DNA from: Candidatus Poribacteria bacterium
Lineage (GTDB): Bacteria > Poribacteria > WGA-4E > PCPOR2b
NCBI GenBank assembly: GCA_965208425.1
Contig: OZ242335.1
Location: 188,544 to 252,543, forward strand
Direction of reading: 5' to 3'
DNA length: 64,000 nucleotides
Part shown: positions 3,249 through 64,000 of the stretch, one piece after another
Position numbering within the stretch: position 1 is the stretch's first letter
Layout of the letters: every line of letters begins with the position of its first letter
Notes under the pieces: generated by a model
What the model was told of the DNA's origin: nothing
The model's database searches: none
What the model saw: only the letters and a program-made list of their open reading frames with translations
Translations under genes and position numbers: made by a program

Positions 3249-4649
3249 GTGAAAAACCGTTGCTTCTTTAGCCTCGTTGTGGGCTTTACGCTGTTTTTTC
3301 TCCTTTTCGCCTGCAGCAAGGCGCAACTCCATCCCGCTGATCCGACCCACAGCGGTGCCACGTCTGGTGTTCAATTGTTAGCATCAATTGAAAATGCCTT
3401 CGTTAGTATTGCTGAAAGGAGTAATCCCGCCGTTGTTGGTGTCACTGCGTCGAGCGTAGAAAGGCGAACAATTCCCCTTAGAAGGTCCGATCGACAGGAG
3501 GGGACGGGGTTTATTTTTCGCAAAGATGGTTATATTTTAACCAATAATCATGTTGTAAGCGGTGCGAAGCAGATTACGGTTCGCCTATTTGACGGTAGAG
3601 AATTCAAAGATACCCAATTGATTGGGGTTGACCCAAACACGGATGTCGCGGTGTTAAAAATTGATGTGCAGGAAGAACTTCCTGTGCTTCTATTTGGTGA
3701 TTCGGATAGAGTTAAAGTTGGACAGTTTGCAATCGCGATCGGCAACCCATTCCAACTTAATTATACGATGACCACCGGGATTGTCAGTGGAAAGGGACGC
3801 TCACTGTTGCCATCGTTTACGATGCACTATCAAGATTTTATCCAGACTGATGCGTGGATCAACCGGGGAAACAGCGGGGGTCCCTTGCTCAATATACGCG
3901 GAGAAGTCATCGGTATCAACTCTGCGATTCGACGCGCAGATGATGCCCCAACGGCAGACGCAGTCAAAGCGGGTGCCGGTTTCGCAATTCCCATCAATCT
4001 CGTGAAAAAGGTCAGCGACCAGCTCATTGCGAACGGACAGGTGATACGTGGGTGGTTAGGGATTTCTATGGTCCCACATACCGACGGTATTCGGGTAACC
4101 CAATTTCATAGTCCGTCCCCTGCCAGACAGGGTGGTATGGAGGTGGGGGATATCATTGTCGAATACAATATGCAAGAAACGCGAGATGTTCGTAAATTCA
4201 GATTCCTTATTGCCGAGTCAGTGGTTGGTAAGGAAGCATCGTTCACAGTCATTCGCCGCGGCGAGCGCAAAAAACTCTCTATAACGATTGGCAGGATGCC
4301 GTGGCGTTTCACAGGGTTGGCAAGGGAGTCAGATTCGGCATCGTGGACGAAACTGGGCATAGCTGTCCGTGATCTAGCTGCCCACGACTTTGAGCGTTAC
4401 CCCTACTTGAGTCTTGAGGCTGAGGGAGTCATTGTTAAGGATGTACGTCTTGGTGCTCCTGCCCCCAGTGCAAGGGTCGCACTCGGAACATTAATTGTGG
4501 GAATCAACGACCAGCGAATCAAAAACATGGCAGATTACGAAAGAGTGCTGCAAAATGCTCTCAGTAAATCGGAAATCTCTTTTGAAATTAAGAATGCCTA
4601 TACCGACGAAGGAACAGAAACGGTTACGGTTAAATTTAATCAAGAGTGA
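3249..4649 (+). CDS. htrA: HtrA/DegP-family periplasmic serine endoprotease with two PDZ domains; lipoprotein-type signal (LLFAC)
   Basis: Catalytic triad contexts TNNHVV, DVAVLKI and GNSGGPL. GTG start with GAGGA SD. 466 aa. Confidence 0.85.
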   Translation: MKNRCFFSLVVGFTLFFLLFACSKAQLHPADPTHSGATSGVQLLASIENAFVSIAERSNPAVVGVTASSVERRTIPLRRSDRQEGTGFIFRKDGYILTNNHVVSGAKQITVRLFDGREFKDTQLIGVDPNTDVAVLKIDVQEELPVLLFGDSDRVKVGQFAIAIGNPFQLNYTMTTGIVSGKGRSLLPSFTMHYQDFIQTDAWINRGNSGGPLLNIRGEVIGINSAIRRADDAPTADAVKAGAGFAIPINLVKKVSDQLIANGQVIRGWLGISMVPHTDGIRVTQFHSPSPARQGGMEVGDIIVEYNMQETRDVRKFRFLIAESVVGKEASFTVIRRGERKKLSITIGRMPWRFTGLARESDSASWTKLGIAVRDLAAHDFERYPYLSLEAEGVIVKDVRLGAPAPSARVALGTLIVGINDQRIKNMADYERVLQNALSKSEISFEIKNAYTDEGTETVTVKFNQE

Positions 4650-4759
4650 AGCCTCATACCAATTTTTCTTCCCGCGTCGAGCACATGTTTTGGGAACGAT
4701 TGTTAAACAACTCTTGAATGCATCAGTTATCTGACTTTTGGCTTGTATGAGAGGTAGCG

Positions 4760-6757
4760 ATGAAAGAACATCTAGCAAATTTACGGGAAGTCCTTGGTCC
4801 CGATGGATTGATTGCGGAACAGCTAACCGGCTATGAGTTTCGACCACAACAACTTGAGATGGCGGAGGCAGTCGCTAGCGCGCTGTCGTCCGATGAACAC
4901 CTTGTGGTTGAAGCTGGTACAGGTGTCGGTAAAAGTTTCGCCTACCTCCTGCCCGCGATTGATCTCGCACTTAGTACCTACGAGCCGGTAGTAATTTCCA
5001 CCAATACTATCAACCTGCAAGAACAGTTGATTTCCAAAGATATACCGTTTCTGCAGCAGGTCCTCCCACAACCTTTCACCGCTGCACTCGCCAAAGGGCG
5101 TGGAAACTATCTGTCGCGGCGTCGTCTAGACAGCTTGAGGACTTATGAGCGTCCACTATTTGATACGATGGCAGAGGCAGAAGAACTTGATCGTATTGTG
5201 GAGTGGGTTAACGTTACTGAGGACGGAAGTAGGGCGGATCTTGAACCGCAGCCGATGTTTGAAATTTGGAATAAGGTAGCCTCGGATACGGATAATTGCC
5301 TGCGGCAACGATGCCCGACCTACGACACATGCTTCTATTTCAAAGCGAGAGCTCAGGTGAATGAAGCCGACCTGATTATTGTGAATCACCACCTGCTTTT
5401 TGCGGATTGGGCGCTCCGTAAAACCAATCCTTACGCTGCCATACTGCCAGAATATAGATACCTAATCATTGATGAAGCGCATCACCTTGAAGCGACTGCG
5501 ACGGAACACACAAGCGTTGAGTTTAGCAATACGCGGGTCAAGAGGTTTTTGGATTCTCTGTGTAATCCACAAGGGAAGGCAGGGCTATTTATCCGATTCG
5601 AATCAACGGGTTCTATTCGGCTTGTTGAGGACGCGCGAGAGGAGGCGAACCAACAGTTTGATTCAATTATGAGTTGGTTGGATCGGCAGGGGGTGAGAGA
5701 TCGAGGACATGGGGTCACACAAACCGTAGATCAAGCCGATTTCGTGCACAATGTGTTAGATGATCCTTTGGGTGAACTCCAGAGCCGGTTAACGTTGCTG
5801 AGAGATGCAGCAACAACCGAAGACGATCAGCAAGAAATTGAAGCCCATCTGCGTCGCTGCCGTGAACTGCGCAACGACTTAGATGTGATGGTTAGTCACA
5901 CGCTGCCGGATTACGTCTACTGGATTAACACCTCGACACGAGGACGATTTGATCGAGTTGTATTACATGCGACGCCAATCGATGTGAGTGAAGAATTGAA
6001 CACCCACCTGTTTGAAAAACTGGACAGTATCATTATGACCAGTGCGACCCTAGCGACCAACCAGAATTTCGACTACTTTCGGGGACGGGTTGGTTTGTCT
6101 CATTGCCGCGAATTACTTGTCGGATCACCCTTCAACTATCAAGAGCAGGTTGAAATTCATATCCCCTCGCGGATGCCGGATCCACGAGATCGTGCGTTCA
6201 CGCAGGCTGCTACCGCGCAGATCCTGAATTATCTCAAACTAACGCATGGCAAAGCCTTCGTCCTGTTTACAAGCTACCGGATGATGGATGAGGTTTACGA
6301 GGAAGTTCTGCCTTACCTTGAGCAGCTTGGAATTGACGTGCTCAAACAGGGAGAGGGACTTTCGCGCAGCGCGATGTTAACGGAGTTTAGAGAGAATATC
6401 AATTCTGTTCTGTTTGGAACTTCCAGTTTTTGGGAGGGAGTTGATGTGCGGGGTGAATCGCTCAGTAGTGTGATTATTACTAAACTACCCTTTGAAGTCC
6501 CGACACATCCAGTGATAGAGGCGCGGGTCAAGCAGATTGAAAAGCGGGGCGGAAACCCGTTTATGGAGTTTAGCTTGCCAGAAGCGATTATTCGATTCAG
6601 GCAAGGATTTGGACGTTTAATTCGCACACAGACGGACACCGGTATTTTCGTTGCCCTTGATGCACGCATCAAAACTAAGTTTTACGGCAGGCAGTTTTTG
6701 AACTCGCTGCCATCTTGCAAAATTGTAGAGAGCGATTCATTGTACGATAGAATATGA
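4760..6757 (+). CDS. dinG: ATP-dependent DNA helicase, DinG/Rad3 (XPD) family
   Basis: Walker A AGTGVGKS, DEAHH box, and a Cys cluster CLRQRCPTYDTCFYF typical of the Fe-S domain. 665 aa. Confidence 0.85.
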   Translation: MKEHLANLREVLGPDGLIAEQLTGYEFRPQQLEMAEAVASALSSDEHLVVEAGTGVGKSFAYLLPAIDLALSTYEPVVISTNTINLQEQLISKDIPFLQQVLPQPFTAALAKGRGNYLSRRRLDSLRTYERPLFDTMAEAEELDRIVEWVNVTEDGSRADLEPQPMFEIWNKVASDTDNCLRQRCPTYDTCFYFKARAQVNEADLIIVNHHLLFADWALRKTNPYAAILPEYRYLIIDEAHHLEATATEHTSVEFSNTRVKRFLDSLCNPQGKAGLFIRFESTGSIRLVEDAREEANQQFDSIMSWLDRQGVRDRGHGVTQTVDQADFVHNVLDDPLGELQSRLTLLRDAATTEDDQQEIEAHLRRCRELRNDLDVMVSHTLPDYVYWINTSTRGRFDRVVLHATPIDVSEELNTHLFEKLDSIIMTSATLATNQNFDYFRGRVGLSHCRELLVGSPFNYQEQVEIHIPSRMPDPRDRAFTQAATAQILNYLKLTHGKAFVLFTSYRMMDEVYEEVLPYLEQLGIDVLKQGEGLSRSAMLTEFRENINSVLFGTSSFWEGVDVRGESLSSVIITKLPFEVPTHPVIEARVKQIEKRGGNPFMEFSLPEAIIRFRQGFGRLIRTQTDTGIFVALDARIKTKFYGRQFLNSLPSCKIVESDSLYDRI

Positions 6758-51971: not shown

Positions 51972-54941
51972 ATGATGTTTAAGTCAAAAATGATTGTGTC
52001 AATTTTCGCGGTGGTGTGGTTGATATATGGTTTCCAAAATATTAGTTATGGGCAGGAGGCAGTTACAGGTGAGATTACAGAGTGTTCGGGGACTCGGCGG
52101 GCCTGGCCATTAGAGACTTGGGTAGACGTAACAATACGAGGTACTGTCCAGGCTACGAGAAATGTGACGAGTTTACAGATTACCGGATCTGCCAACGGAA
52201 AGTCTGTTGGGATTGATTCGATGGGGCAACTTTCAGCAGGTCAATCCAGGAATTTTTCAATTACCGGGTTTATTGTTACCGATGAGAATACACTGGATTG
52301 TAGTGTTAGCCTTGAGTGGATTGAATTTACGCAGCCGGAACCTGATCCACCTGAAAACAACGAGCCGCCCGATGGAAATACAGGCTCACCGCCCAACAAC
52401 GGACAGTCCGGTGGAACGACATACACCTCTGGTGAAGTGATTCCAACGCTTCCTTCCGGGGGCTCCTCGGTAGTATTCCAAGGTGGATTCAGATCAAGAA
52501 ATGCGCGGTTCAGACTTTCTGGAGGGGTATACACTATTAATTTTGAGAATGGAGGGTTTATAGAAACGGGTGGAATTACATACACCTGCATCACTTCTGG
52601 TGGGTGCACAGTTAGAAATGGACGTGTGACTCAAGGAACGATTCAGGTTGGTGGCACGGCTCCACCGCCACCTGTAGAGGAATCGGACTTAGCAGTAGAC
52701 CAACCGACGGTGAGTAAAAGCACTTTAGATCCAGGTGAACGTTTTACGCTATCTACCACCGTCAGAAACAATGGTTCCGGCAGGGCGGGTTCGACGACGT
52801 TGCGCTATTATCGGTCCAGTGATAATAGGATTTCGACCGGTGATACAGAAGTCGGCACGGACAGCGTTAGCGCACTTAGTGCAAATCGGAGTAGTGATGA
52901 AAGTATCACGGTCACAGCCCCAACATCGCCAGGAACCTATTATTACGGTGCGTGTGTTGAATCGGTTTCGGATGAGAGTAACTCTAACAATAACTGCTCT
53001 GCTGCGGTGCGTATCACAGTAAAACAGTTAAAATCGGACTTAGTAGTGGATCGACCGACGGTCAGCAAAAGCACGTTAGCCCCCGGTGAGAACTTTACGC
53101 TGTCTGCCACCGTCAAGAACAATGGAGAAGCAAGGGCAGGTTCGACGACGTTACGCTATTATCGCTCGACCGATACCACGATTTCGACCGGTGATACAGA
53201 AGTCGGCACGGACAGCGTTAGCGCGCTTGATGCGAATGGGAGCAGTGCTCAGAGCATTACACTCACAGCCCCAACATCTCCTGGAACATACTATTACGGT
53301 GCGTGTGTTGAATCGGTTTCAGATGAGAGTAACTCTAACAATAACTGCTCTGATGCGGTAAGCGTCACAGTGAATCAGCCAACGCTAAGTGCCTCAACCC
53401 CGCCACGATTAACAGAGGCGGTGCTTGATAGCAGTGAAGTGACACTGACGATGACAGATGCCACTTACGACCAATCCCTGTCCACAATCAGCAACGCCAT
53501 AACGGTATCCGGTATTGTAGGTGTTACGGTTGGTACGGTCAGGCGGGTAAACGACACGGAGGTTACAGTCACACTTGCCTTCGACGGAACAGATTTTGAC
53601 ACCGATGCGACCCTTACCTTCAGTGTGGGTGCAGATGCTATAGCAAACTACGATGGCTCCGCCCTAACAGCACAAGTCCCCGTCACCGCAATCAAAGGAT
53701 TTGATTTTGATTTGTCTGTGCCGGCGGGCATCAGCATGATTCATGTGCCTTTGAAGGTAACAAAGGTTGACGGGGTAGCCAAGACGATTGAATCCATCTC
53801 CGACCTCTACGCCGCGCTCGGTGGGGACGACGCTGTCATTTTTCTTATGACCTATGACTCCCAACAAGGTTGGCTCGGCTATTGGGGTACTTCGGATACA
53901 GGCACCGCCGCCGATAGAACTTTGACTGATGACATGGGGATTTATGCCCGGCTGATTGTCCCGGTTTCGGTTCAACTCACCGGCGAGACGCTGGGGACTA
54001 TAGGCAGCGGGACTATCACCTTAAATCAAGGACTGAACCTTGTGGGGCTCCCCTTGCGAGACTCAAGGATAACCCGTGTAAGTGACCTGTTCACGCTCGA
54101 TGGGATTCGTGGCAACGTCTTTGGGATTTCGCTCGCTGATGATGGAGAGTTTAAGACTGTCGGACAGGCAGGGGATCCGGGCGATATTCCCGTTACTGGT
54201 GGACAAAGTTTTATCCTGACCGCTCAGAGATCGGCAACGGTCACTATTTCCGGTGAAGCATGGACTAACGTTTCAGAGACAGCTGCCGCCCCATCGTTAT
54301 CCCTGAAGGGCATTGAGGTGGAGGATACGACGCCTGTTTTAGCGTTGAGGGGGACGATTGTTGATGAACAAAGGGACTTAAACCAGTCAGGCTTCCGTGT
54401 GACTGTCAAGAACCTTTCAACCGGCAGATCTATCACCGGCATGACCAAAGCGGAAGGTGATGTGTATAAGCTCACCGTCGTTGACATAGAAATGGGTCAA
54501 GCCGCTGCGATTGGCGATGTCCTTGAAATCTCCGCTCAATCTCCCAATCCGTTAATCGGTGTAGAGCCGTTACGTTATACCTTGACTGCGGAAGATGTCA
54601 AGCGGAGCCTCATTCAGTTGCCAGAACTGGTTGCCTATGAGATACCCGCAGAGACCCAACTGTTGCCCAACTACCCCAACCCGTTCAATCCGGAAACATG
54701 GATACCGTATCGGTTGGCAGAGGACGCTTTCGTGACATTGACCATCTATGATCAGACCGGTCAAGTTGTCCGCTCCCTTGACGTGGGATACCAGACTGCG
54801 GCGGTCTACGAAAGTCGATCCAAGGCAATCTATTGGGACGGTAGAAACGAGTTTGGTGAAACCGTGGCAAGTGGAATCTATTTCTACCATCTGTCGGCGG
54901 ACGATTATTCTGCGACACGGAAGATGCTAATTTTGAAGTAG
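51972..54941 (+). CDS. large secreted protein with two tandem CARDB domains and a T9SS C-terminal sorting domain
   Basis: AAGGAG SD. Signal peptide. Two ~105-aa near-identical CARDB-like repeats (..PTVSKSTL.PGE.FTLS.TV.NNG..RAGSTTLRYYRS.D..ISTGDTEVGTDSVSAL...ESNSNNNCS). C-terminal NYPNPFNPETWIPY...GIYFYHL tail. Confidence 0.8.
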   Translation: MMFKSKMIVSIFAVVWLIYGFQNISYGQEAVTGEITECSGTRRAWPLETWVDVTIRGTVQATRNVTSLQITGSANGKSVGIDSMGQLSAGQSRNFSITGFIVTDENTLDCSVSLEWIEFTQPEPDPPENNEPPDGNTGSPPNNGQSGGTTYTSGEVIPTLPSGGSSVVFQGGFRSRNARFRLSGGVYTINFENGGFIETGGITYTCITSGGCTVRNGRVTQGTIQVGGTAPPPPVEESDLAVDQPTVSKSTLDPGERFTLSTTVRNNGSGRAGSTTLRYYRSSDNRISTGDTEVGTDSVSALSANRSSDESITVTAPTSPGTYYYGACVESVSDESNSNNNCSAAVRITVKQLKSDLVVDRPTVSKSTLAPGENFTLSATVKNNGEARAGSTTLRYYRSTDTTISTGDTEVGTDSVSALDANGSSAQSITLTAPTSPGTYYYGACVESVSDESNSNNNCSDAVSVTVNQPTLSASTPPRLTEAVLDSSEVTLTMTDATYDQSLSTISNAITVSGIVGVTVGTVRRVNDTEVTVTLAFDGTDFDTDATLTFSVGADAIANYDGSALTAQVPVTAIKGFDFDLSVPAGISMIHVPLKVTKVDGVAKTIESISDLYAALGGDDAVIFLMTYDSQQGWLGYWGTSDTGTAADRTLTDDMGIYARLIVPVSVQLTGETLGTIGSGTITLNQGLNLVGLPLRDSRITRVSDLFTLDGIRGNVFGISLADDGEFKTVGQAGDPGDIPVTGGQSFILTAQRSATVTISGEAWTNVSETAAAPSLSLKGIEVEDTTPVLALRGTIVDEQRDLNQSGFRVTVKNLSTGRSITGMTKAEGDVYKLTVVDIEMGQAAAIGDVLEISAQSPNPLIGVEPLRYTLTAEDVKRSLIQLPELVAYEIPAETQLLPNYPNPFNPETWIPYRLAEDAFVTLTIYDQTGQVVRSLDVGYQTAAVYESRSKAIYWDGRNEFGETVASGIYFYHLSADDYSATRKMLILK

Positions 54942-55336
54942 GTCATACAGTTTGATCTATAGCCAGAACAAATAGCATATAGGAGTTACACCCTTTAGTT
55001 TGTAGTAGCGCGTTCATTGCGCGTTCTTCCCTCCCCCCGATTCCGATTCTTCCCGATGGATCCCCGATATGATCGGGACAGGTTCCGACCTGTCGGAATG
55101 CTCGGAACGGCACGGAACGAAGAAGCGTGAACTCCGCTTTGCGGAGAAGTTCCCGTGACCGGGACGGGAGATAGAGGGGGAACGGGCGATAAATCGCCCT
55201 ACTACAAACCTATGGATTTAATTATAGTTGCCCGATTCATTGGACTTTGAGCGTTCAAGTGCATAAGTCCTATCAAGTGTCAAAGTTACCAGCTAACCGA
55301 AAACGGATTTATCCGTTCAAAACCGAGGAGGATGTT

Positions 55337-57217
55337 ATGAATCTCATGAAAAAGAGGCTGTTTTTTGGCTTCAAATTCGTTTTAATCTTTGCTCTGTTTC
55401 TATCAAACAGCCATGGCACATATATTCCCCAAACTGTTCTCGAAGGGCATACAAATTCGGTCAATAGTGTATCGTTCAGTCCTGATGGTAGTATGCTCGC
55501 CAGTGGAAGTAGTGACAAAAGGATTCGTCTTTGGAATGCCGCTACAGGCGTGCTCCTCCACACTCTCACGGGACATGAGGGCGGTGTCAAGAGCGTAACG
55601 TTCAGTCCTGATGGTAGTATGCTTGTCAGTGGGGGTGATGACAACACGATTCGTCTTTGGGATGTCGCCACCCGTAAGGAACTGAAGACCCTTGAGGGGC
55701 ATACGACTTCGGTCAGGAGCGTAGCGTTCAGTCCTGATGGTAGTATGCTTGCCAGTGGGAGTGATGACAACACGATTCGTCTATGGGATGTTGCTACGGG
55801 TGAGGAACCCAAGATACTGAGGGGAGAATGGTGGAATGATCGTATTGAATCCGTAGCGTTCAGTCCTGATGGTAGTATGCTTGTCAGTGGGGGTGCTGAC
55901 AATACGATTCGTCTGTGGGATGTCGCTACGGGTAAGGAACTAATGACCCTCACGGGGCATAGGTCTCTTGTCTATAGTGTAGCGTTCAGTCCTGATGGTA
56001 GTATGCTTGCCAGTGGGAGTGCTGACAATACGATTCGTCTGTGGGATGTTAGCACCGGCAAGGGACTGAATACCCTTGAACTATCTAGTATTTGGCAGGG
56101 TTATAGTGTCTATAGTGTAACGTTCAGTCCTGATGGTAGTATGCTTGCCAGTGGGAGTGATGACAACACGATTCGTCTTTGGGAGCTACCGTCCACCCAT
56201 GTTAGCATTACGCCTTCCCCGGTGGAGTCACCAGCAGTGGGTGAGCAGTTGGTCATCAACGTTAGTATTAAAGGAGGGAAAAACGTGCGAGGCTATGCGG
56301 TCAACGTAGGGTATAATCCGTTCACACTCCGCTATGTTTCCCACACCCGCGGCGATTATCTGCCCGGCAACGTATTTCCCGGGCCAGAGATACTTCCGCC
56401 AGACGAGATGTTTAATAGAAATGATGCTTTCGTGATTTTTACTATGGTTTCACCGGATGGGGTTAAAAGTGGTGACGGCACCCTTGCCACTATCACTTTT
56501 GAGGTTGTTGCTCGAAGGGCATCTACGCTTGAGTTATACGTAGCACTCTCTGATAGTGATGGCGAACGGTTGGGGCATTGGTCGAAAGATGGAAGCGTGA
56601 TTGAACCACCGTGGGATGTCAATGGGGACGGTTTCGTGAACCTCTTGGATTTGTCGATTGTTGCCTCCCGGTTTGGGGAGGGTGGGGACAATCGAGCTGA
56701 TGTTAATCGGGATGGGGTTGTTAATATTACGGACCTGATTTTGGTCGCCAGCGGAATGTATGGCGAGCTAGCCGCGCCCGCCGCCCATTTACAGACGGAG
56801 CCAACGCTTGCCCCTGCAGCGGTGAAAGGGTGGCTCGCTCAAGCACAGGGGTTAGATCTCACGGATGCAAGGTTACACAGGGGCGTTGCCTTCCTCGAAC
56901 AGCTGCTCGCGGTGTTGACCCCGAAAGAGACGCAACTGTTGGCAAACTATCCGAATCCGTTTAATCCTGAGACGTGGATACCTTACACGCTATCCGAGTA
57001 CAGCGACATAAGCATCCGGATCTACGATAGTAAAGGACAGGCAATCCGACAGCTATCACTCGGAATGAAACCAGCCGGTGTATACATTGACAAGGATTCC
57101 GCCGCGTATTGGGACGGAACAACGGAGACAGGGGAAAAGGTGTCAAGCGGTATTTACTTTTACTCGCTCTCCACTGGTTCAGCAATGTATACCAAGAAAA
57201 TGATCGTCGTCAAATAG
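55337..57217 (+). CDS. secreted WD40-repeat / cohesin-like / dockerin-repeat protein with a T9SS C-terminal sorting domain
   Basis: GAGGAGG SD before ATG 55337. Six units of the form VNSVSFSPDGSMLASGS.D.TIRLWD. Cohesin-like GDGTLATITFEVVA. Dockerin pair DVNGDGFVNLLDL / DVNRDGVVNITDL. NYPNPFNPETWIPY tail. Confidence 0.8.
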   Translation: MNLMKKRLFFGFKFVLIFALFLSNSHGTYIPQTVLEGHTNSVNSVSFSPDGSMLASGSSDKRIRLWNAATGVLLHTLTGHEGGVKSVTFSPDGSMLVSGGDDNTIRLWDVATRKELKTLEGHTTSVRSVAFSPDGSMLASGSDDNTIRLWDVATGEEPKILRGEWWNDRIESVAFSPDGSMLVSGGADNTIRLWDVATGKELMTLTGHRSLVYSVAFSPDGSMLASGSADNTIRLWDVSTGKGLNTLELSSIWQGYSVYSVTFSPDGSMLASGSDDNTIRLWELPSTHVSITPSPVESPAVGEQLVINVSIKGGKNVRGYAVNVGYNPFTLRYVSHTRGDYLPGNVFPGPEILPPDEMFNRNDAFVIFTMVSPDGVKSGDGTLATITFEVVARRASTLELYVALSDSDGERLGHWSKDGSVIEPPWDVNGDGFVNLLDLSIVASRFGEGGDNRADVNRDGVVNITDLILVASGMYGELAAPAAHLQTEPTLAPAAVKGWLAQAQGLDLTDARLHRGVAFLEQLLAVLTPKETQLLANYPNPFNPETWIPYTLSEYSDISIRIYDSKGQAIRQLSLGMKPAGVYIDKDSAAYWDGTTETGEKVSSGIYFYSLSTGSAMYTKKMIVVK

Positions 57218-57409
57218 TATCAAATGACCTGATGATGGTTGGAATGCCGATGTTCATTGGCTTCCAGCCATCACGCATGAGCGGGTTGGCTTGGCTTGGT
57301 GAGCATATTCTTCGAGAAATTGATGCGTTTGGATATACGCATAACCCAGTATAGCAAAAAGGCTATCGGGTGTCAAATCCCTCTTCAAGTCACCGTTGGT
57401 GCGATTTTA

Positions 57410-58318
57410 TCATTGTTTGCCTCCTGTCGGTTTGGAACTGGCTAGGGTGGTGGTATCTTTGCAGCGTTGTGATTCGGTTGCTAAGTTAGCGTTGATGTCC
57501 TTGAGTAGATGTTGGGGTATCAGGTCAAGATATTGAGAGATGACGCGTTTGGAGAGCCGGGTAATCTGCGAGATTTTGTCAATATCGTCAGTGGCGGTGC
57601 GAACGGTCTTGACAATTTCATAATCGCGAATGTATCGGTCAACGGCTTCTTTGGAGTGTTTGGTCTTTGCAGCAATAGTGGGGGTGAGATGTCCTTGTAG
57701 ATAGAGGGTAACAATCTCTTTCTTATGGGTAATGGCACCCGATAAGTCATGGATATTGCCGCGTGTAGGCAAGAGTTTACCACTCGTTTTTTGCCATTCA
57801 TTGACATAATCGCTGACCACAGCATCACAGACATTGAGCAATACAGCCAAGTCGAGTTGTGTCAATAATGCGCCTTGGTCATAGGCTTGATAACACCAAC
57901 GGACCAATCGATTAATTCGTAGTTGACGAGCGGTCAATCCATTGCGAAAGGATTCAATATCCTCATCAGCGAGGTAGGTCAGAATAACCGGCTTCATACG
58001 GGTTTTAGCGATGGACTTTCCCTTTTGTGGATATTCATCAATAGGCACAGCCATCCAGACGAGTTGTCCATAACTGAGCATTCGCTCATTAGGTATCTGC
58101 TCCCCTGTGGCAAGTTTCTCAAGGGGTAAGGTAATCACAAAATAGTCCTCAACGGTTTTGACAATGTCATCGACAATCGCAGCGGCAGTGACTTCGCCTT
58201 TGTCGTACCCGTAAGAATTGATAAAGCGATGAATCAGCAACTGGCGCAGTGACTTGTCATTGATGCGTCTGAATTTCTTCTCGTTGACTTCGGTTCGGGT
58301 CAATGTTTTGCCCATCAA
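57410..58318 (-). CDS. double-HTH DNA-binding protein, paralogue B (resembles DUF1670-type proteins; assignment tentative)
   Basis: 302 aa. The conserved core shared with its neighbour, ...QAYDQGALLTQLDLAVLL...HKKEIVTLYLQGHLTPTIAAKTKHSKEAVDRYIRDYE, is predicted from the sequence pattern to form two helix-turn-helix units. Confidence 0.65.
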   Translation of the reverse strand: MMGKTLTRTEVNEKKFRRINDKSLRQLLIHRFINSYGYDKGEVTAAAIVDDIVKTVEDYFVITLPLEKLATGEQIPNERMLSYGQLVWMAVPIDEYPQKGKSIAKTRMKPVILTYLADEDIESFRNGLTARQLRINRLVRWCYQAYDQGALLTQLDLAVLLNVCDAVVSDYVNEWQKTSGKLLPTRGNIHDLSGAITHKKEIVTLYLQGHLTPTIAAKTKHSKEAVDRYIRDYEIVKTVRTATDDIDKISQITRLSKRVISQYLDLIPQHLLKDINANLATESQRCKDTTTLASSKPTGGKQ

Positions 58319-59124
58319 TTGTCCCCCTTTTTCGCATCAACTGGTTCCGGGTGAAGCAGTTGAGTCATTCGCTCGGTTTGTTGATACTCATTGTATAGCA
58401 ACAGATACTCCCGAATCAGCCGGTCCGATAGATGGCTTATCAGCCGTATCTGTCCCTTGGCAAAGCCTTGACTATGGAGGCTGGCTACCTGTGTAAAGTC
58501 ACTCAGGTATCGCCAGATCGCTCGCTCGGTGTGGTTAGTCTTTTGCTCTATTTTGGTGAACTGATACCCTTTGAAGTAGAGTTCGAGAATCTGAGTCTTA
58601 TGAGAAACGCCAGGGCCCATGTCGTGTTTGGCACCCCGGGTCATCACAAAATAACCGTCCTGTTTCAACTGGCGAATATCGCGTTTGACCGTGGCTGGAC
58701 TGGTCGTTAAGAGTACCGCTAAATCTTCATAGCTGAGTAGGGCATCTTGGTCATAGGCTTGTTTGGTTAAGCGGAGGATCCGATGCCGTCTCAGACCTGA
58801 AAGTCCGTAATTGGCTAACACCTCAACGTCGGCTTGCATATCATTGAGAGTGAGTCGGCAGGATACCTTTTTCGCTAAGGCGATGTGTTTACCGGCTGGT
58901 TCGTCGGCTGCGACTACCTCGTAGCAGATTTGACCCGATGTCAGTTCAATTTCGGCGTGTTGGGCAAAGTAGGAAGCAATCTGTTTGTAGTAGGCTTCGG
59001 CAATGATAGGCATTAGATTAAAGTCTGATGATATTTTCTGAATAATCGCTGCACGGGCAGTCTTGGATTGTAGGCGGTTGACACCGTAGGCTCTATCGGT
59101 TTGTGGCTTCATATAGACCTCCAT
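58315..59124 (-). CDS. double-HTH DNA-binding protein, paralogue A (DUF1670-like, tentative); stop overlaps the start of paralogue B (ATGA)
   Basis: 269 aa. ...QAYDQDALLSYEDLAVLLTTSPATVKRDIRQLKQDGYFV...HKTQILELYFKGYQFTKIEQKTNHTERAIWRYLSDF. Translational-coupling overlap with the downstream gene. Confidence 0.65.
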   Translation of the reverse strand: MEVYMKPQTDRAYGVNRLQSKTARAAIIQKISSDFNLMPIIAEAYYKQIASYFAQHAEIELTSGQICYEVVAADEPAGKHIALAKKVSCRLTLNDMQADVEVLANYGLSGLRRHRILRLTKQAYDQDALLSYEDLAVLLTTSPATVKRDIRQLKQDGYFVMTRGAKHDMGPGVSHKTQILELYFKGYQFTKIEQKTNHTERAIWRYLSDFTQVASLHSQGFAKGQIRLISHLSDRLIREYLLLYNEYQQTERMTQLLHPEPVDAKKGDN

Positions 59125-59272
59125 CAGTCGAGTGCAGTTGATGGCAATGCCATCTCCTTGTAGTTTAACTCATGGGGTCATTTGATACAAACTATAAATA
59201 GTATCAAATAACCAAACGGCAGTAGGGGGTAAGATTCACTTTTACCCTCTACTGCGAAATAGGGGGTAGATT

Positions 59273-61047: not shown

Positions 61048-64000
61048 ATTATAAAAACGTTAGTTGTAAATCGGAAACGCATCACATTCATTGTGTTGAT
61101 GATGTTATCTCTATTCGCTCCACAAATATGGGGAATCGCGGACGCCGACGGGCACCTCATTGAGGGTCCCTGGCTCTGGATGATTGTTCCGTCGGCTGAT
61201 GTTTCACCGAAGATAGAATTCCCCCAAGAAGAGATAGAAGTCCCCCAAGGACTGATGCCCTCCCTGTGGGGAGAGATTAAGACTGATGTTTCGACAGAAA
61301 CAGATTCCCCAGAGATATATTTTCTAGATATAGATTCCCTTGCTGCTGCGAGTAATAGTACCGTTAGGGAATTCTCTGTTGCCCAAGGCAGTGCGATCAC
61401 TGCTGGGGATACCGTTGGATTGTCAAGATGGACAAGTAGTATTATTCCCTACCAAAAGAAAGAATGCGAAGAGTTCAAGAGCGTTAGTTGGTTTTTTATT
61501 TTTGGTGGCGGCACTGAAACTAAAACCGAATGTTGGAATAATAGTCTCAACGCGGTGGTCGATTTACTTGGATTGGGGAGAGATGCTAAGAAAGGACATA
61601 CCGCGTATGCGTTGATTTACCTCATCTCGCCCCGCGAGCAAATCAGCACCATGGGTGTTCAGAGTGGGGACGCACTCCACGTATGGCTCAATGGCGATGT
61701 GGTTTACGGACAGGCTGCGACTCACTTAGATTGCCGAAAGGTAGACATATTCGGTGCGCCCGATCACAGGACCTGCATCCCCGATCCACGGGATTGGGAG
61801 CGGAAACCGCACTATTTTCCCGTGATGCTTAAAGCCGGTCCCAACCTGCTATTGGTGAAAGTCAAACAGCACGGAACGTATTGGGATCTGTGGGTTGACC
61901 TTGATGCAGATTTCAGCACGACAACTGGCGCCCTTTCAATGATTCAAGCTTCGTCTCCGTTGGGGGAGTTGACGTTGGATGGTAACGTTATCACCTTGAG
62001 ACTAAATAGTAGATCTTTTGAGCCAGATATTACCATCCTCGAAGATGCGCTGACGGTATCGGGCATCCCCGGTGTAACGATACAACCGTCTAGTGTCCAA
62101 CGAATCAGCGACATAGAAGTAATGTTTACCCTAAGTTTTGACCACACCGACATCGACGGAGATGCTGAGCTCACCTTCGCCGTCGGTGACGGTGCGATAA
62201 CAAACTATCAAGGTGCTGCGTACAGCATAGAAAGCCGTGTTGCCGGCATTGAAGAATCAGTTGACGTTTCAGTTACATCTCCGTTGGGGGAGTTGACGTT
62301 GGATGGGAGCGTTATCACCCTGACGTTAAGTGGCAGAACTCTTGAGGCAGATATTTCCACAATCCGCGATGCGCTGACGGTATCGGGCATCCCCGGTGTA
62401 ACGATACAACCGTCTAGCGTCCAACGAATCAGCGAGACAGAAGTAATGTTTACCCTAAGTTTTGACCACACCGACATCGACGGAGATGTTCAGCTCACCT
62501 TCGCCGTCGGTGACGGTGCGATAACAAACTATCAAGGTGCTGGATTGCGCAGCAGCAAGCGTGTTGAGTCCACTGAAGAATCAGTTGACGTTTCAGTTGC
62601 ATCTCCGTTGGGGGAGTTGACGTTGGATGGGAGCGTTATCACCCTGACGTTAAGTGGCAGAGTTTTTGAGCCGGATATTTCCACAATCCGCGATGCGCTG
62701 ACAGTATCGGGCATCCCCGGTGTAACGATACAACCGTCGAGCGTCCAACGAATCAGCGAGACAGAAGTAACGGTTACGCTTGATTTCGACAGGACCCCAT
62801 TTATTGATGTTCCCCCGCCGCTGACTGTCAGCGTGGGCACCGGTGCGATCTCAAACTATATGGGGGAGGCCGTTACCGTAGAAGTTTCTATCGTATCCTC
62901 CAGAGACGAACAGACTAGCATTTATTGGACAGATCCCCTAGATAATACAATCTACAACGGCAACTTAGACGGTCCAAACGTCGAAGCCTTCGTCGCAGGA
63001 TTGGGGAATCCAACCGGTATCGCCTTAGACGCGGCGGATAGCAAGATGTACTGGACAGACGCGGGGACGAAAAAAATCCAACGTGCGAACTTGAACGGTT
63101 CAAACGTCGAAGACCTAGTTGCCCAAGGATTAAGCGGTCCAAGAAGCATCGCCTTAGATGTCGCAGCGGGTAAGATGTACTGGACAGACGCGGGGACGAA
63201 AAAAATCCAACGTGCGAACTTGGACGGTTCAAACGTCGAAGACCTAGTTGCCCAAGGGTTGGGGCGTCCATTCGGTATCGCGTTAGATATAACAGGCGGC
63301 CAGATGTATTGGACAGACAACGGGACAGACAAGATTCAGCGATCGGATTTGGACGGTTCAAACGTCGAAGATCTCGTCACAGGATTGGGAAATCCATTGG
63401 GCATCGCGTTAGATATAGCAGGCGGCAAGATGTATTGGACAGACAACGGGACAGACAAGATTCAGCGATCGGATTTGGACGGTTCAAACGTCGAAGATCT
63501 CGTCACAGGATTGGGAAATCCATTGGGCATCGCGTTAGATATAGCAGGCGGCAAGATATATTGGACAGACGCGGGGACGAAAAAAATCCAACGTGCGAAC
63601 TTGGACGGTTCAAACGTCAAAGATCTCTTCACAGAATTAGTCTCTCCAGCCGGCATTGCCATTGTAATAGATTCTTCCTCCCCAGTGACACAGGAGGCTG
63701 TGGACCATGACCCAGTGGCACAGGAGGTTGTGGACCATGATGCCATTGTTGATGTCCAAGAGTTCGTGCTCTTGCCAAACTACCCCAATCCGTTCAATCC
63801 AGAGACGTGGATACCGTATCACTTGGCAACGGAGGCAGATGTTACGTTGACTATCTACGACACAAGTGGACAGGTCGTTCGGCTGTTGAAGCTCGGACAT
63901 CAAGCTGCGGGACGGTATCAGAGCCGAAGTCGTGCTGCTTATTGGGATGGCAGAAACCAGTTTGGAGAGGCGGTAGCAAGCGGTGTTTATTTCTATCGCC
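61048..64000 (+). CDS. very large secreted protein: 3 x ~105-aa tandem repeats + six-blade YWTD (LDL-receptor class B) beta-propeller + T9SS C-terminal sorting domain; 3' end beyond window
   Basis: Open frame from 60973 to the window end. AAGGAG at 61039-61044. There is no canonical in-frame start before GTG 61093 / ATG 61099, but a proper signal peptide (IIKTLVVNRKRITFIVLMMLSLFAPQIWG/IADA) exists only if translation starts at ATT 61048 or ATA 61051. YWTD units (K.YWTD.GT.KIQRA.LDGSNVEDLV). LLPNYPNPFNPETWIPY...GVYFY tail truncated at 64000. Confidence 0.75.
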   Translation, partial: MIKTLVVNRKRITFIVLMMLSLFAPQIWGIADADGHLIEGPWLWMIVPSADVSPKIEFPQEEIEVPQGLMPSLWGEIKTDVSTETDSPEIYFLDIDSLAAASNSTVREFSVAQGSAITAGDTVGLSRWTSSIIPYQKKECEEFKSVSWFFIFGGGTETKTECWNNSLNAVVDLLGLGRDAKKGHTAYALIYLISPREQISTMGVQSGDALHVWLNGDVVYGQAATHLDCRKVDIFGAPDHRTCIPDPRDWERKPHYFPVMLKAGPNLLLVKVKQHGTYWDLWVDLDADFSTTTGALSMIQASSPLGELTLDGNVITLRLNSRSFEPDITILEDALTVSGIPGVTIQPSSVQRISDIEVMFTLSFDHTDIDGDAELTFAVGDGAITNYQGAAYSIESRVAGIEESVDVSVTSPLGELTLDGSVITLTLSGRTLEADISTIRDALTVSGIPGVTIQPSSVQRISETEVMFTLSFDHTDIDGDVQLTFAVGDGAITNYQGAGLRSSKRVESTEESVDVSVASPLGELTLDGSVITLTLSGRVFEPDISTIRDALTVSGIPGVTIQPSSVQRISETEVTVTLDFDRTPFIDVPPPLTVSVGTGAISNYMGEAVTVEVSIVSSRDEQTSIYWTDPLDNTIYNGNLDGPNVEAFVAGLGNPTGIALDAADSKMYWTDAGTKKIQRANLNGSNVEDLVAQGLSGPRSIALDVAAGKMYWTDAGTKKIQRANLDGSNVEDLVAQGLGRPFGIALDITGGQMYWTDNGTDKIQRSDLDGSNVEDLVTGLGNPLGIALDIAGGKMYWTDNGTDKIQRSDLDGSNVEDLVTGLGNPLGIALDIAGGKIYWTDAGTKKIQRANLDGSNVKDLFTELVSPAGIAIVIDSSSPVTQEAVDHDPVAQEVVDHDAIVDVQEFVLLPNYPNPFNPETWIPYHLATEADVTLTIYDTSGQVVRLLKLGHQAAGRYQSRSRAAYWDGRNQFGEAVASGVYFYR

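Follow-up and report, generated by a model that had tools for sequence, protein, structure and literature searches.

We analysed a 64,000-nucleotide stretch of a Candidatus Poribacteria genome (contig OZ242335.1, positions 188,544 to 252,543; hereafter the window), in which two adjacent genes for DUF1670 proteins lie between inverted repeats at the 3′ end of a cargo gene of the type IX secretion system (T9SS). Judged from comparison of its copies at many loci, this cassette is one member of a previously undescribed, multi-copy family of mobile elements whose sole genes are the two DUF1670 genes, here called orfA and orfB. The same alignments establish that the element has moved, where it begins and ends, that a 2-bp repeat flanks it, which class of target it enters and in which orientation, and that it repairs the codon that it interrupts. 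In the literature searched, we found no paper on DUF1670 or PF07900, or on an element with this target.

The evidence for mobility comes from the distribution of the copies. A scan of one genome per species returned 43 loci, all of them in Candidatus Poribacteria metagenome-assembled genomes (MAGs) and several per genome, with 8 copies in CBDBEE01, 10 in CBDANF01 and approximately 8 in CBDFHD01. Copies within a genome are 95-99.9% identical across roughly 2.0-2.3 kb (98.5-99.9% for the 8 copies of CBDBEE01), and their flanks are unrelated. On the orfA side the similarity between copies ends sharply, and on the other side it either ends or shades off into a sorting-domain gene that is a paralogue. 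Scanning metagenomes yielded a further 80 loci, with OrfA identities of 49-83%, mostly on contigs of 2-2.7 kb, and relatives that are only about 30% identical were found on contigs of like size. The smallest members measure 1.7 kb and consist of the two genes and the ends, with nothing more. OrfA homologues number 832 when clustered at 90%, and many of these clusters have more than 100 members with longest contigs of about 2 kb, indicating a repeat that has been collapsed by assemblers. No plasmid or viral contigs carrying the element were found. The first-pass annotation of the window had proposed a mobile cassette, and the near-identical, multi-copy relatives at different loci bear this out. 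It had also named two observations that would speak against the proposal, namely the gene pair in relatives without flanking repeats and the repeats without the genes. The pair always had terminal repeats, and repeats without the genes were not seen, with the exception of two end stubs that are described below.

Within one MAG, two copies (L014, ~4745-5862, and L037, ~4589-5441) are split by inserts of ~1.1 kb and 0.55-0.85 kb, respectively, which may be other mobile elements nested inside. Three copies in CBDFHD01 (L028, L036 and L044) share left or right flanks in differing combinations, which could reflect either recombination between copies or assembly mis-joins at the repeat.

The copies define the ends of the element precisely. 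In the window, a 13-mer, GTATCAAATGACC, is located at 57217-57229 on the plus strand, and its reverse complement, GGTCATTTGATAC, at 59176-59188. This inverted repeat had been recognised at the outset, although its second arm was then placed one base too far to the right (59177-59189). A third copy with one mismatch, GTATCAAATAACC, is present at 59201-59213. Allowing at most one mismatch, the 13-mer therefore has three sites in the 64-kb window against a chance expectation of 0.2, and none of 100 shuffled sequences reached three. The 13-bp arms form the inverted repeats in nearly all of ~120 loci, and this conservation among copies supports the original description of a cassette bounded by inverted repeats. 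In gene orientation, every copy reads flank-NN, ATAGTTTG-TATCAAATGACC, orfA, orfB, GGTCATTTGATAC-TAT and NN-flank, and the terminal tips of all copies are ATAG and CTAT. Each arm is itself a pseudo-palindrome (TATCA-NN-TGAYC). In one subfamily both arms have changed in concert, to GTCTCATATGACC and GGTCATATGAGAC, and more distant members have a fully palindromic sequence at either end, TAGTATCA-NN-TGATACC. This architecture is kept down to 49% OrfA identity, and where the proteins are ~30% identical a related inverted repeat of 18 bp, GTCATTTGACCCGGGGTG, forms the ends.

Immediately beyond the two ends, the dinucleotides are identical in 75 of 76 copies (TT in 71, CG in two, TA in one and CT in one), with a single mismatch. 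This 2-bp flanking repeat indicates that the element proper extends from ATAG to CTAT, which corresponds to 57214-59195 in the window; the search for other copies suggested by the first-pass annotation gave the same limits, as similarity between loci starts and stops at these positions. All of the non-TT copies are at least 30% diverged from the TT copies. The repeat could have arisen by duplication of the target, or it could be a crossover core that the element brings along. Two other readings of the junctions were discarded. An IS200/IS605-like insertion 3′ of a target hexamer without duplication was dropped once the CG/CG, TA/TA and CT/CT pairs had been seen, and a 6-bp target duplication is out because the gene-side junction is constant (AAATAG), the far junction varies and only 2 bp are repeated.

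The target is the end of a T9SS cargo gene. The cargo gene in the window matches TIGR04183 (Por_Secre_tail) with 38 bits (cut-off 23) and PF18962 with 34.2 bits (cut-off 27), both reaching its C-terminus, so the cassette adjoins a T9SS cargo gene as had been proposed. The flanks of L016 and L112 also score above the TIGR04183 and PF18962 cut-offs, including the flank of a distant member. Using a sorting-domain profile built in this analysis, we found a sorting-domain C-terminus adjoining the orfB-side end in 34 of the 43 genome loci and in at least 38 of the 50 metagenome loci whose flank was long enough. Approximately 80% of copies are thus placed at the last codon of such a gene. The flank is the reverse complement of the sequence for this C-terminus (for example ...ATRKMLILK-stop or ...TRKMVLMK-stop), and the orientation is always the same. 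The target logo has a three-base periodicity, and the conserved DNA is that imposed by the ...RKM.I.K-stop strand of the protein. With a slash for the point of insertion, the target end can be written as ..AARATGNTNNTNNNNAA/RTAR, and the wider pattern as ...AAR ATG NTN NTN NNN AA/R TAR. The 8-copy subfamily of CBDBEE01 (L007-L013 and L043) sits not at T9SS ends but in a palindrome loop, GAAACCGAGTTTTG..AAAACTCGGTTTC, which suggests that its target has switched or that its ends are longer. As this subfamily and a few further copies occupy other sites, the target specificity is strong but not absolute.

The junctions explain how a coding sequence can be entered in this way. On the cargo coding strand they read ...NNN-AA/ATAG-TATCA...(element)...CAAACTAT/AA-R-TAR. 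At the junction next to the gene, AAATAG was read in each of the 26 occupied T9SS ends, whereas the far junction varies between AAATAG, AAGTAG, AAGTAA, AAATAA and AAGTGA, and the same variety is found at unoccupied sorting-domain ends. A constant gene-side junction and a variable far junction indicate that the original third base and stop codon have been displaced to the far side, and that A-TAG is contributed by the element. The cargo gene in the window is chimeric: in its last codon, AAA (57212-57214), and its stop, TAG (57215-57217), the AA is gene-derived and the A-TAG is element-derived. The second AA (59196-59197) in most copies begins the displaced original Lys and stop codons (AA-R-TAR). 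The insertion was initially placed exactly at the stop codon; in fact the last sense codon is split between its second and third bases, and the stop that the gene now uses comes from the element. Because the end of the element completes the codon and provides a stop, the cargo gene stays intact. The non-TT cases obey the same rule, as CG+A gives CGA (Arg) and AG+A gives AGA (Arg), each followed by the TAG of the element. In the TA/TA case, TA+A gives TAA and the element has entered the stop codon itself.

The two genes of the element are paralogues, as first described, and they overlap; a correction is that both lie on the minus strand. The stop of orfA and the ATG of orfB share one base (TGATG), and the likely true start of orfA is the ATG at 59112, which is preceded by GGAGG and gives a protein of 265 aa, the same length as its homologues. 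OrfA and OrfB are 37% identical across 189 aa (E = 8e-28), and alignment of their profiles with hhalign (probability 100%, 240 columns) identifies them as paralogues over their full length. OrfB thus brings no additional domain. The tentative assignment of both proteins to DUF1670 was substantiated by the profile search that had been recommended for it: against a PF07900 gathering score of 25 bits, OrfA scores 205 bits (E = 1.3e-60) and OrfB 203.7 bits (E = 3.1e-60), and each match covers nearly the whole model. Of 41 genome copies, at least 35 carry intact versions of both genes, and ratios of non-synonymous to synonymous substitution (dN/dS) of 0.07-0.12 for orfA and 0.08-0.13 for orfB point to strong purifying selection.

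An AlphaFold2 model of OrfA, made with an 88-sequence alignment and with a mean predicted local distance difference test (pLDDT) score of 88.8, consists of three N-terminal helices, a beta-hairpin, a long helix, a winged helix and two more helix-turn-helix (HTH) units. Positions occupied by R, Q, RG, HK, H, RY and Y are near-invariant in both OrfA and OrfB, and in OrfA these residues include R163, G164, H175, K176, H198, R205, Y206 and Y240. Invariant His, Arg and Tyr residues of this kind are unusual in HTH domains that bind plain operators, and they are the foremost candidates for chemistry or metal binding. Single polypeptides in which A and B are fused also exist, with two DUF1670 units (~500-550 aa) or three (~930-950 aa), and this suggests that the OrfA/OrfB pair works as one unit. 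Proteins with several DUF1670 units include P0148, P0151, P0165, P0130 and P0138. In one relative of ~30% identity (L129, 4806-6548), the OrfB homologue has 580 aa and is fused to a weak CHC2 zinc ribbon, DUF3991 and Toprim_2, a primase- or nuclease-like module, within 18-19-bp inverted repeats that are 2.9 kb apart.

No transposase or integrase had been recognisable in the cassette at first reading, and family, profile and fold searches, including those with the OrfA model, lead to the same result. A DDE or DEDD (RNase H-fold) catalytic domain with an acidic triad was not found in the element proteins, and neither was a serine recombinase (resolvase-type) catalytic domain, including that of IS607. 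There was no sequence or fold match to a tyrosine recombinase (Phage_integrase-type) domain and no match to HUH (Y1/Y2) enzymes; the inverted repeats and 2-bp flanking repeat are also unlike IS200/IS605 and IS91. Against PDB sequences, the OrfA profile retrieved an HTH repeat protein only (8vd6, ‘CAP repeat’, E = 6.8e-5), and a Foldseek search with the OrfA model gave no match at E ≤ 0.001. A hidden tyrosine-recombinase motif (H-x7-RY) was noticed by eye and rejected, as neither the PDB profile search nor the fold searches supported it. The residues R163, H175, K176, H198 and Y206 recall the tyrosine-recombinase set by eye only, and all of them lie in HTH units. Among the features by which insertion sequences are recognised, the family has inverted repeats, near-identical multiple copies and a short flanking repeat, and it has no transposase of a recognised class.

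Downstream of orfB, on the minus strand (57376-57348), the non-coding part of the element holds a promoter-like site that agrees with the consensus at 11 of 12 positions and that the Poribacteria copies have kept. It faces out of the element at the T9SS-side end, in antisense to the cargo gene's 3′ end, and the stretch from the orfA-side end to orfA yielded no site of this kind. By analogy with circle-forming IS elements, it is plausible that this predicted promoter drives orfAB only when the two ends abut, as in a circle or tandem. From an integrated copy, it would yield an antisense RNA to the cargo gene and could silence that gene. The 1.7-kb members have ~24 nt between the orfB stop and the terminal repeat and yet use the same target; as they leave no room for the promoter, it must be an accessory that cannot be essential to the mechanism. 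The promoter is followed by conserved palindromic segments, of which the largest is at 57234-57272. In this palindrome, 82.7% of cells are paired in the alignment, compared with 30-52% when the partner is slid, and covariation is not above that of shuffles. A small antisense open reading frame (ORF) at the T9SS-side end was also considered and rejected, since its frame is broken by a 32-nt indel between subfamilies. Two distant loci (L126, 4560-4800, and L129, 6700-6790) share a non-coding stretch of ~100 nt beside the orfB-side end, which reads aatgactcacttc...ggtgtg...cttctacaccgagggtt.ccgatcgaaaa and has no Rfam match.

Taken together, we consider it fairly probable that the family is a self-contained, site-specific insertion element in which a heteromer of OrfA and OrfB binds the ends and carries out or directs insertion. 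The heteromer would bind the pseudo-palindromic terminal sites (TATCA-NN-TGAYC), recognise the conserved coding DNA for the final beta-strand of the sorting domain, and perform or direct breakage and joining with a 2-bp stagger. Expression of orfAB from the outward promoter of the Poribacteria subfamily would depend on two ends being abutted. The parts of this proposal differ in strength. That OrfA and OrfB bind the ends of the element is strongly suggested, and whether they also catalyse the reaction is close to evenly balanced. More tentatively, and somewhat short of an even prospect, the pair could be an HTH-only transposase or recombinase of a new mechanistic class, which would make 2-bp staggered exchanges and would find its place of insertion by reading the protein-constrained coding sequence for the last strand of the T9SS sorting domain.

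Several observations weigh against a self-contained element. The evidence for multiple copies comes from related genomes and not from the genome of the window itself. An orthologous empty site, an excised circle and a true tandem copy were sought, and none was found; in the search for an empty site, the gene downstream had no close orthologue and the best homologues of the cargo gene were paralogous unoccupied ends. In L025 and L032, the same T9SS gene is occupied in two MAGs, with flanks that are 93% and elements that are 88% identical. This insertion is old and vertically inherited, and not all copies are recent. Since some insertions are old, current activity is shown only where copies are near-identical. 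In addition, no catalytic fold was found, as Pfam, NCBIfam, PHROGs and PADLOC gave HTH-type matches only, and an enzyme encoded elsewhere may act in trans.

This last point can be developed into an explanation in which the cassette is non-autonomous, a transposase or recombinase encoded elsewhere moves it, and the DUF1670 pair is cargo, for example self-regulating repressors. Such a role would fit proteins whose similarities are all to transcription-factor-type HTH domains, and OrfA, and by paralogy OrfB, without a catalytic fold. We nevertheless regard it as unlikely, because the gene pair and TCA-NN-TGA inverted repeats stay together from 90% to ~30% identity across very different metagenomes, the smallest members hold only these genes and ends, and in multi-copy genomes purifying selection on both genes is strong. 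Moreover, gene-less copies bounded by the repeats were absent among 131 loci. Alternatively, the element might borrow a recombinase of its host, as Xer-exploiting elements do, leaving OrfA and OrfB as targeting and architectural factors only. HTH arrays without a catalytic fold would be suited to this task, insertion is precise and orientation-specific with a shared core of only 2 bp, and the site predicted for abutted ends is quasi-symmetric (CTAT-TT-ATAG). However, the arms would be 12-13 bp apart when abutted, unlike the spacers of tyrosine-recombinase core sites, which are 6-8 bp, and the targets are hundreds of paralogous gene ends and not a single dif-like site. One such system would also need to work in several phyla, and we think a borrowed recombinase quite improbable.

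Mobility that is guided or assisted by RNA has also been weighed. A small RNA from the T9SS-side promoter would pair with the sorting-domain coding sequence and pick the target, and the element does have a strong, conserved promoter-like site with conserved palindromic segments behind it. The loop of the palindrome, AATRAACATC, is complementary to GATGTTGATT, which is typical of the target, and distant relatives likewise have a conserved non-coding stretch at the orfB-side end. Against this, the 1.7-kb members reach the same target class with ~24 nt to spare, which leaves no room for such an RNA, and in the CBDBEE01 subfamily the loop has not changed with the target. RNAalifold predicted almost nothing, covariation did not exceed that of shuffled controls and there was no Rfam match, so that a structured or guide RNA was rejected as a feature of the element and a part for it in targeting appears very improbable. 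The cassette might finally not be mobile at all, being a conserved regulatory operon for secretion cargo genes with the repeats as operators. The proteins do look like transcription factors, and some positions are conserved between related genomes. This explanation is hardly tenable given up to ten copies per genome that are up to 99.9% identical within unrelated flanks, the sharp boundaries with a 2-bp repeat, the collapse of the repeat into metagenome contigs of ~2 kb, and a whole subfamily in palindrome loops unrelated to T9SS genes.

One further feature of the window concerns direct repeats. An 18-nt near-direct repeat (57212-57229 and 59196-59213, 17 of 18 positions identical) is present as the first-pass annotation recorded, and it was interpreted there as a target site duplication or an att-like palindrome. 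It is neither, as the sole flanking direct repeat across 76 copies is 2 bp. The 18-bp repeat is instead composite, and is made up of the 2-bp flanking AA, the 4-bp ATAG and 12 bp, TATCAAATAACC (59202-59213). The ATAG is owned by the element at one junction and resembles the target's own codons at the other. The 12-nt extension is a solo copy of the T9SS-side end, and is seen in 2 of ~95 loci, the window and L096. In L096 the stub (1541-1556) is accompanied by no other part of a second copy, and a hairpin follows it, as in the window. The stub in the window lies just outside the orfA-side end, which creates a site like that of abutted ends. Insertion restores a sorting-domain end followed by AAATAG, and this target is then free to receive a second copy in front of the first. 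The stub might be left over from such an earlier copy, or be an excision footprint or a functional junction. The hairpin beyond it (59220-59254) is probably the original 3′ hairpin of the cargo gene, displaced 2 kb downstream.

Table 1. Features of the mobile element and its insertion site, in coordinates of the 64-kb window (IRL and IRR, left and right inverted repeats in gene orientation)
Feature	Position	Strand	Description
Cargo/target gene	55247-57217	+	WD40-repeat secretion cargo, T9SS type-A sorting domain at end (...KKMIVVK-stop)
2-bp flanking repeat, copy 1	57212-57213		AA (= TT in gene orientation of the element)
Mobile element proper	57214-59195	-	1,982 bp; gene orientation: ATAGTTTG-IRL ... 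orfA, orfB ... IRR-CTAT
T9SS-side terminus (right end, gene orientation)	57214-57229		ATAG + TATCAAATGACC; 13-mer arm = 57217-57229
Subterminal imperfect palindrome	57234-57272		GATGGTTGGAATGCC...GGCTTCCAGCCATC; kept among Poribacteria copies
Sigma-70-like promoter, putative	57348-57376	-	TTGACA-17 nt-TATACT, extended -10 TG
orfB, DUF1670 protein	57410-58315	-	301 aa from ATG 58315; 302 aa from TTG 58318
orfA, DUF1670 protein	58315-59112	-	265 aa from ATG 59112; listed ORF from 59124, 269 aa
orfA-side terminus (left end, gene orientation)	59176-59195		Arm GGTCATTTGATAC (59176-59188) + AAACTAT (59189-59195)
2-bp flanking repeat, copy 2	59196-59197		AA
Solo stub of T9SS-side terminus	59198-59213	+	ATAG + TATCAAATAACC; 15/16 identical to 57214-57229
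Hairpin, 13-bp stem	59220-59254	+	CAGTAGGGGGTAA...TTACCCTCTACTG; no T-run; read from sequence

The neighbouring cargo genes in the window contain long in-frame tandem repeats, at 52681-53359 (period 351 nt), 55445-56184 (period 126 nt), 61954-62777 (period 324 nt) and 62955-63638 (period 126 nt).

If confirmed, these results would describe a family of insertion elements without a recognised transposase, and hence a candidate for a new DNA-rearranging enzyme. They would also provide the first biological role for DUF1670, a Pfam family of ~1,200 clusters at 50% identity. The target is unusual in that it is a coding sequence found many times per genome through constraint at the level of the protein, and repair of the entered gene with four bases of the element opens many harmless landing sites. 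Broken assemblies near T9SS cargo genes, in Poribacteria and in other T9SS-bearing phyla, are accounted for by these elements, and annotation pipelines will take the last codon and stop of occupied genes for native. A two-protein, sequence-specific inserter of ~1.7 kb would, once confirmed, be of interest to genome engineering as a tool.

The family shares features with several known systems and coincides with none of those compared. Short length, terminal inverted repeats and a 2-bp flanking repeat with a dinucleotide preference are shared with IS630/Tc1-mariner elements. Their transposases bind DNA through an HTH pair, and OrfB weakly matches HTH_29, HTH_23 and HTH_28, families typical of such transposases. 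In contrast to these elements, ours lacks a DDE/D domain and encodes two paralogous proteins in place of one; its flanking dinucleotide is given by the first two bases of the target's last codon instead of being TA, and its choice of target reaches ~20 nt into the coding sequence. Tn7, directed by TnsD to attTn7 at the 3′ end of glmS, likewise reads its site through DNA that is fixed by selection on a protein C-terminus, inserts in one orientation and leaves the gene functional. Tn7 inserts ~25 bp downstream of glmS with a 5-bp duplication, using five Tns proteins and one site per genome. The element described here differs in that it enters and rebuilds the last codon, has two HTH proteins and is directed at a target gene family with many members. 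Islands and prophages in the 3′ ends of tRNA and tmRNA genes similarly carry a replacement for the gene end and displace the original one. They do so with tyrosine or serine integrases and att cores of tens of bases, whereas our element brings a replacement of 4 nt (A-TAG), has a 2-bp shared core and carries no integrase.

IS607 and other serine-recombinase elements, as well as IS110/IS1111, also insert sequence-specifically with a 2-bp shared core and without a long duplication. Our element has neither a serine-recombinase nor a DEDD domain, nor a family match of the bridge-RNA kind, and IS607 and IS110 are without the conventional terminal inverted repeats that it possesses. The proteins themselves are closest in build to multi-HTH repeat-binding proteins of the Cbp1 type and to PDB entry 8vd6, as the C-terminal half of DUF1670 consists of tandem HTH units and OrfB has a weak NCBIfam match to HTH_Cbp1. 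This similarity is limited to the HTH repeats, and those proteins are not tied to mobile elements.

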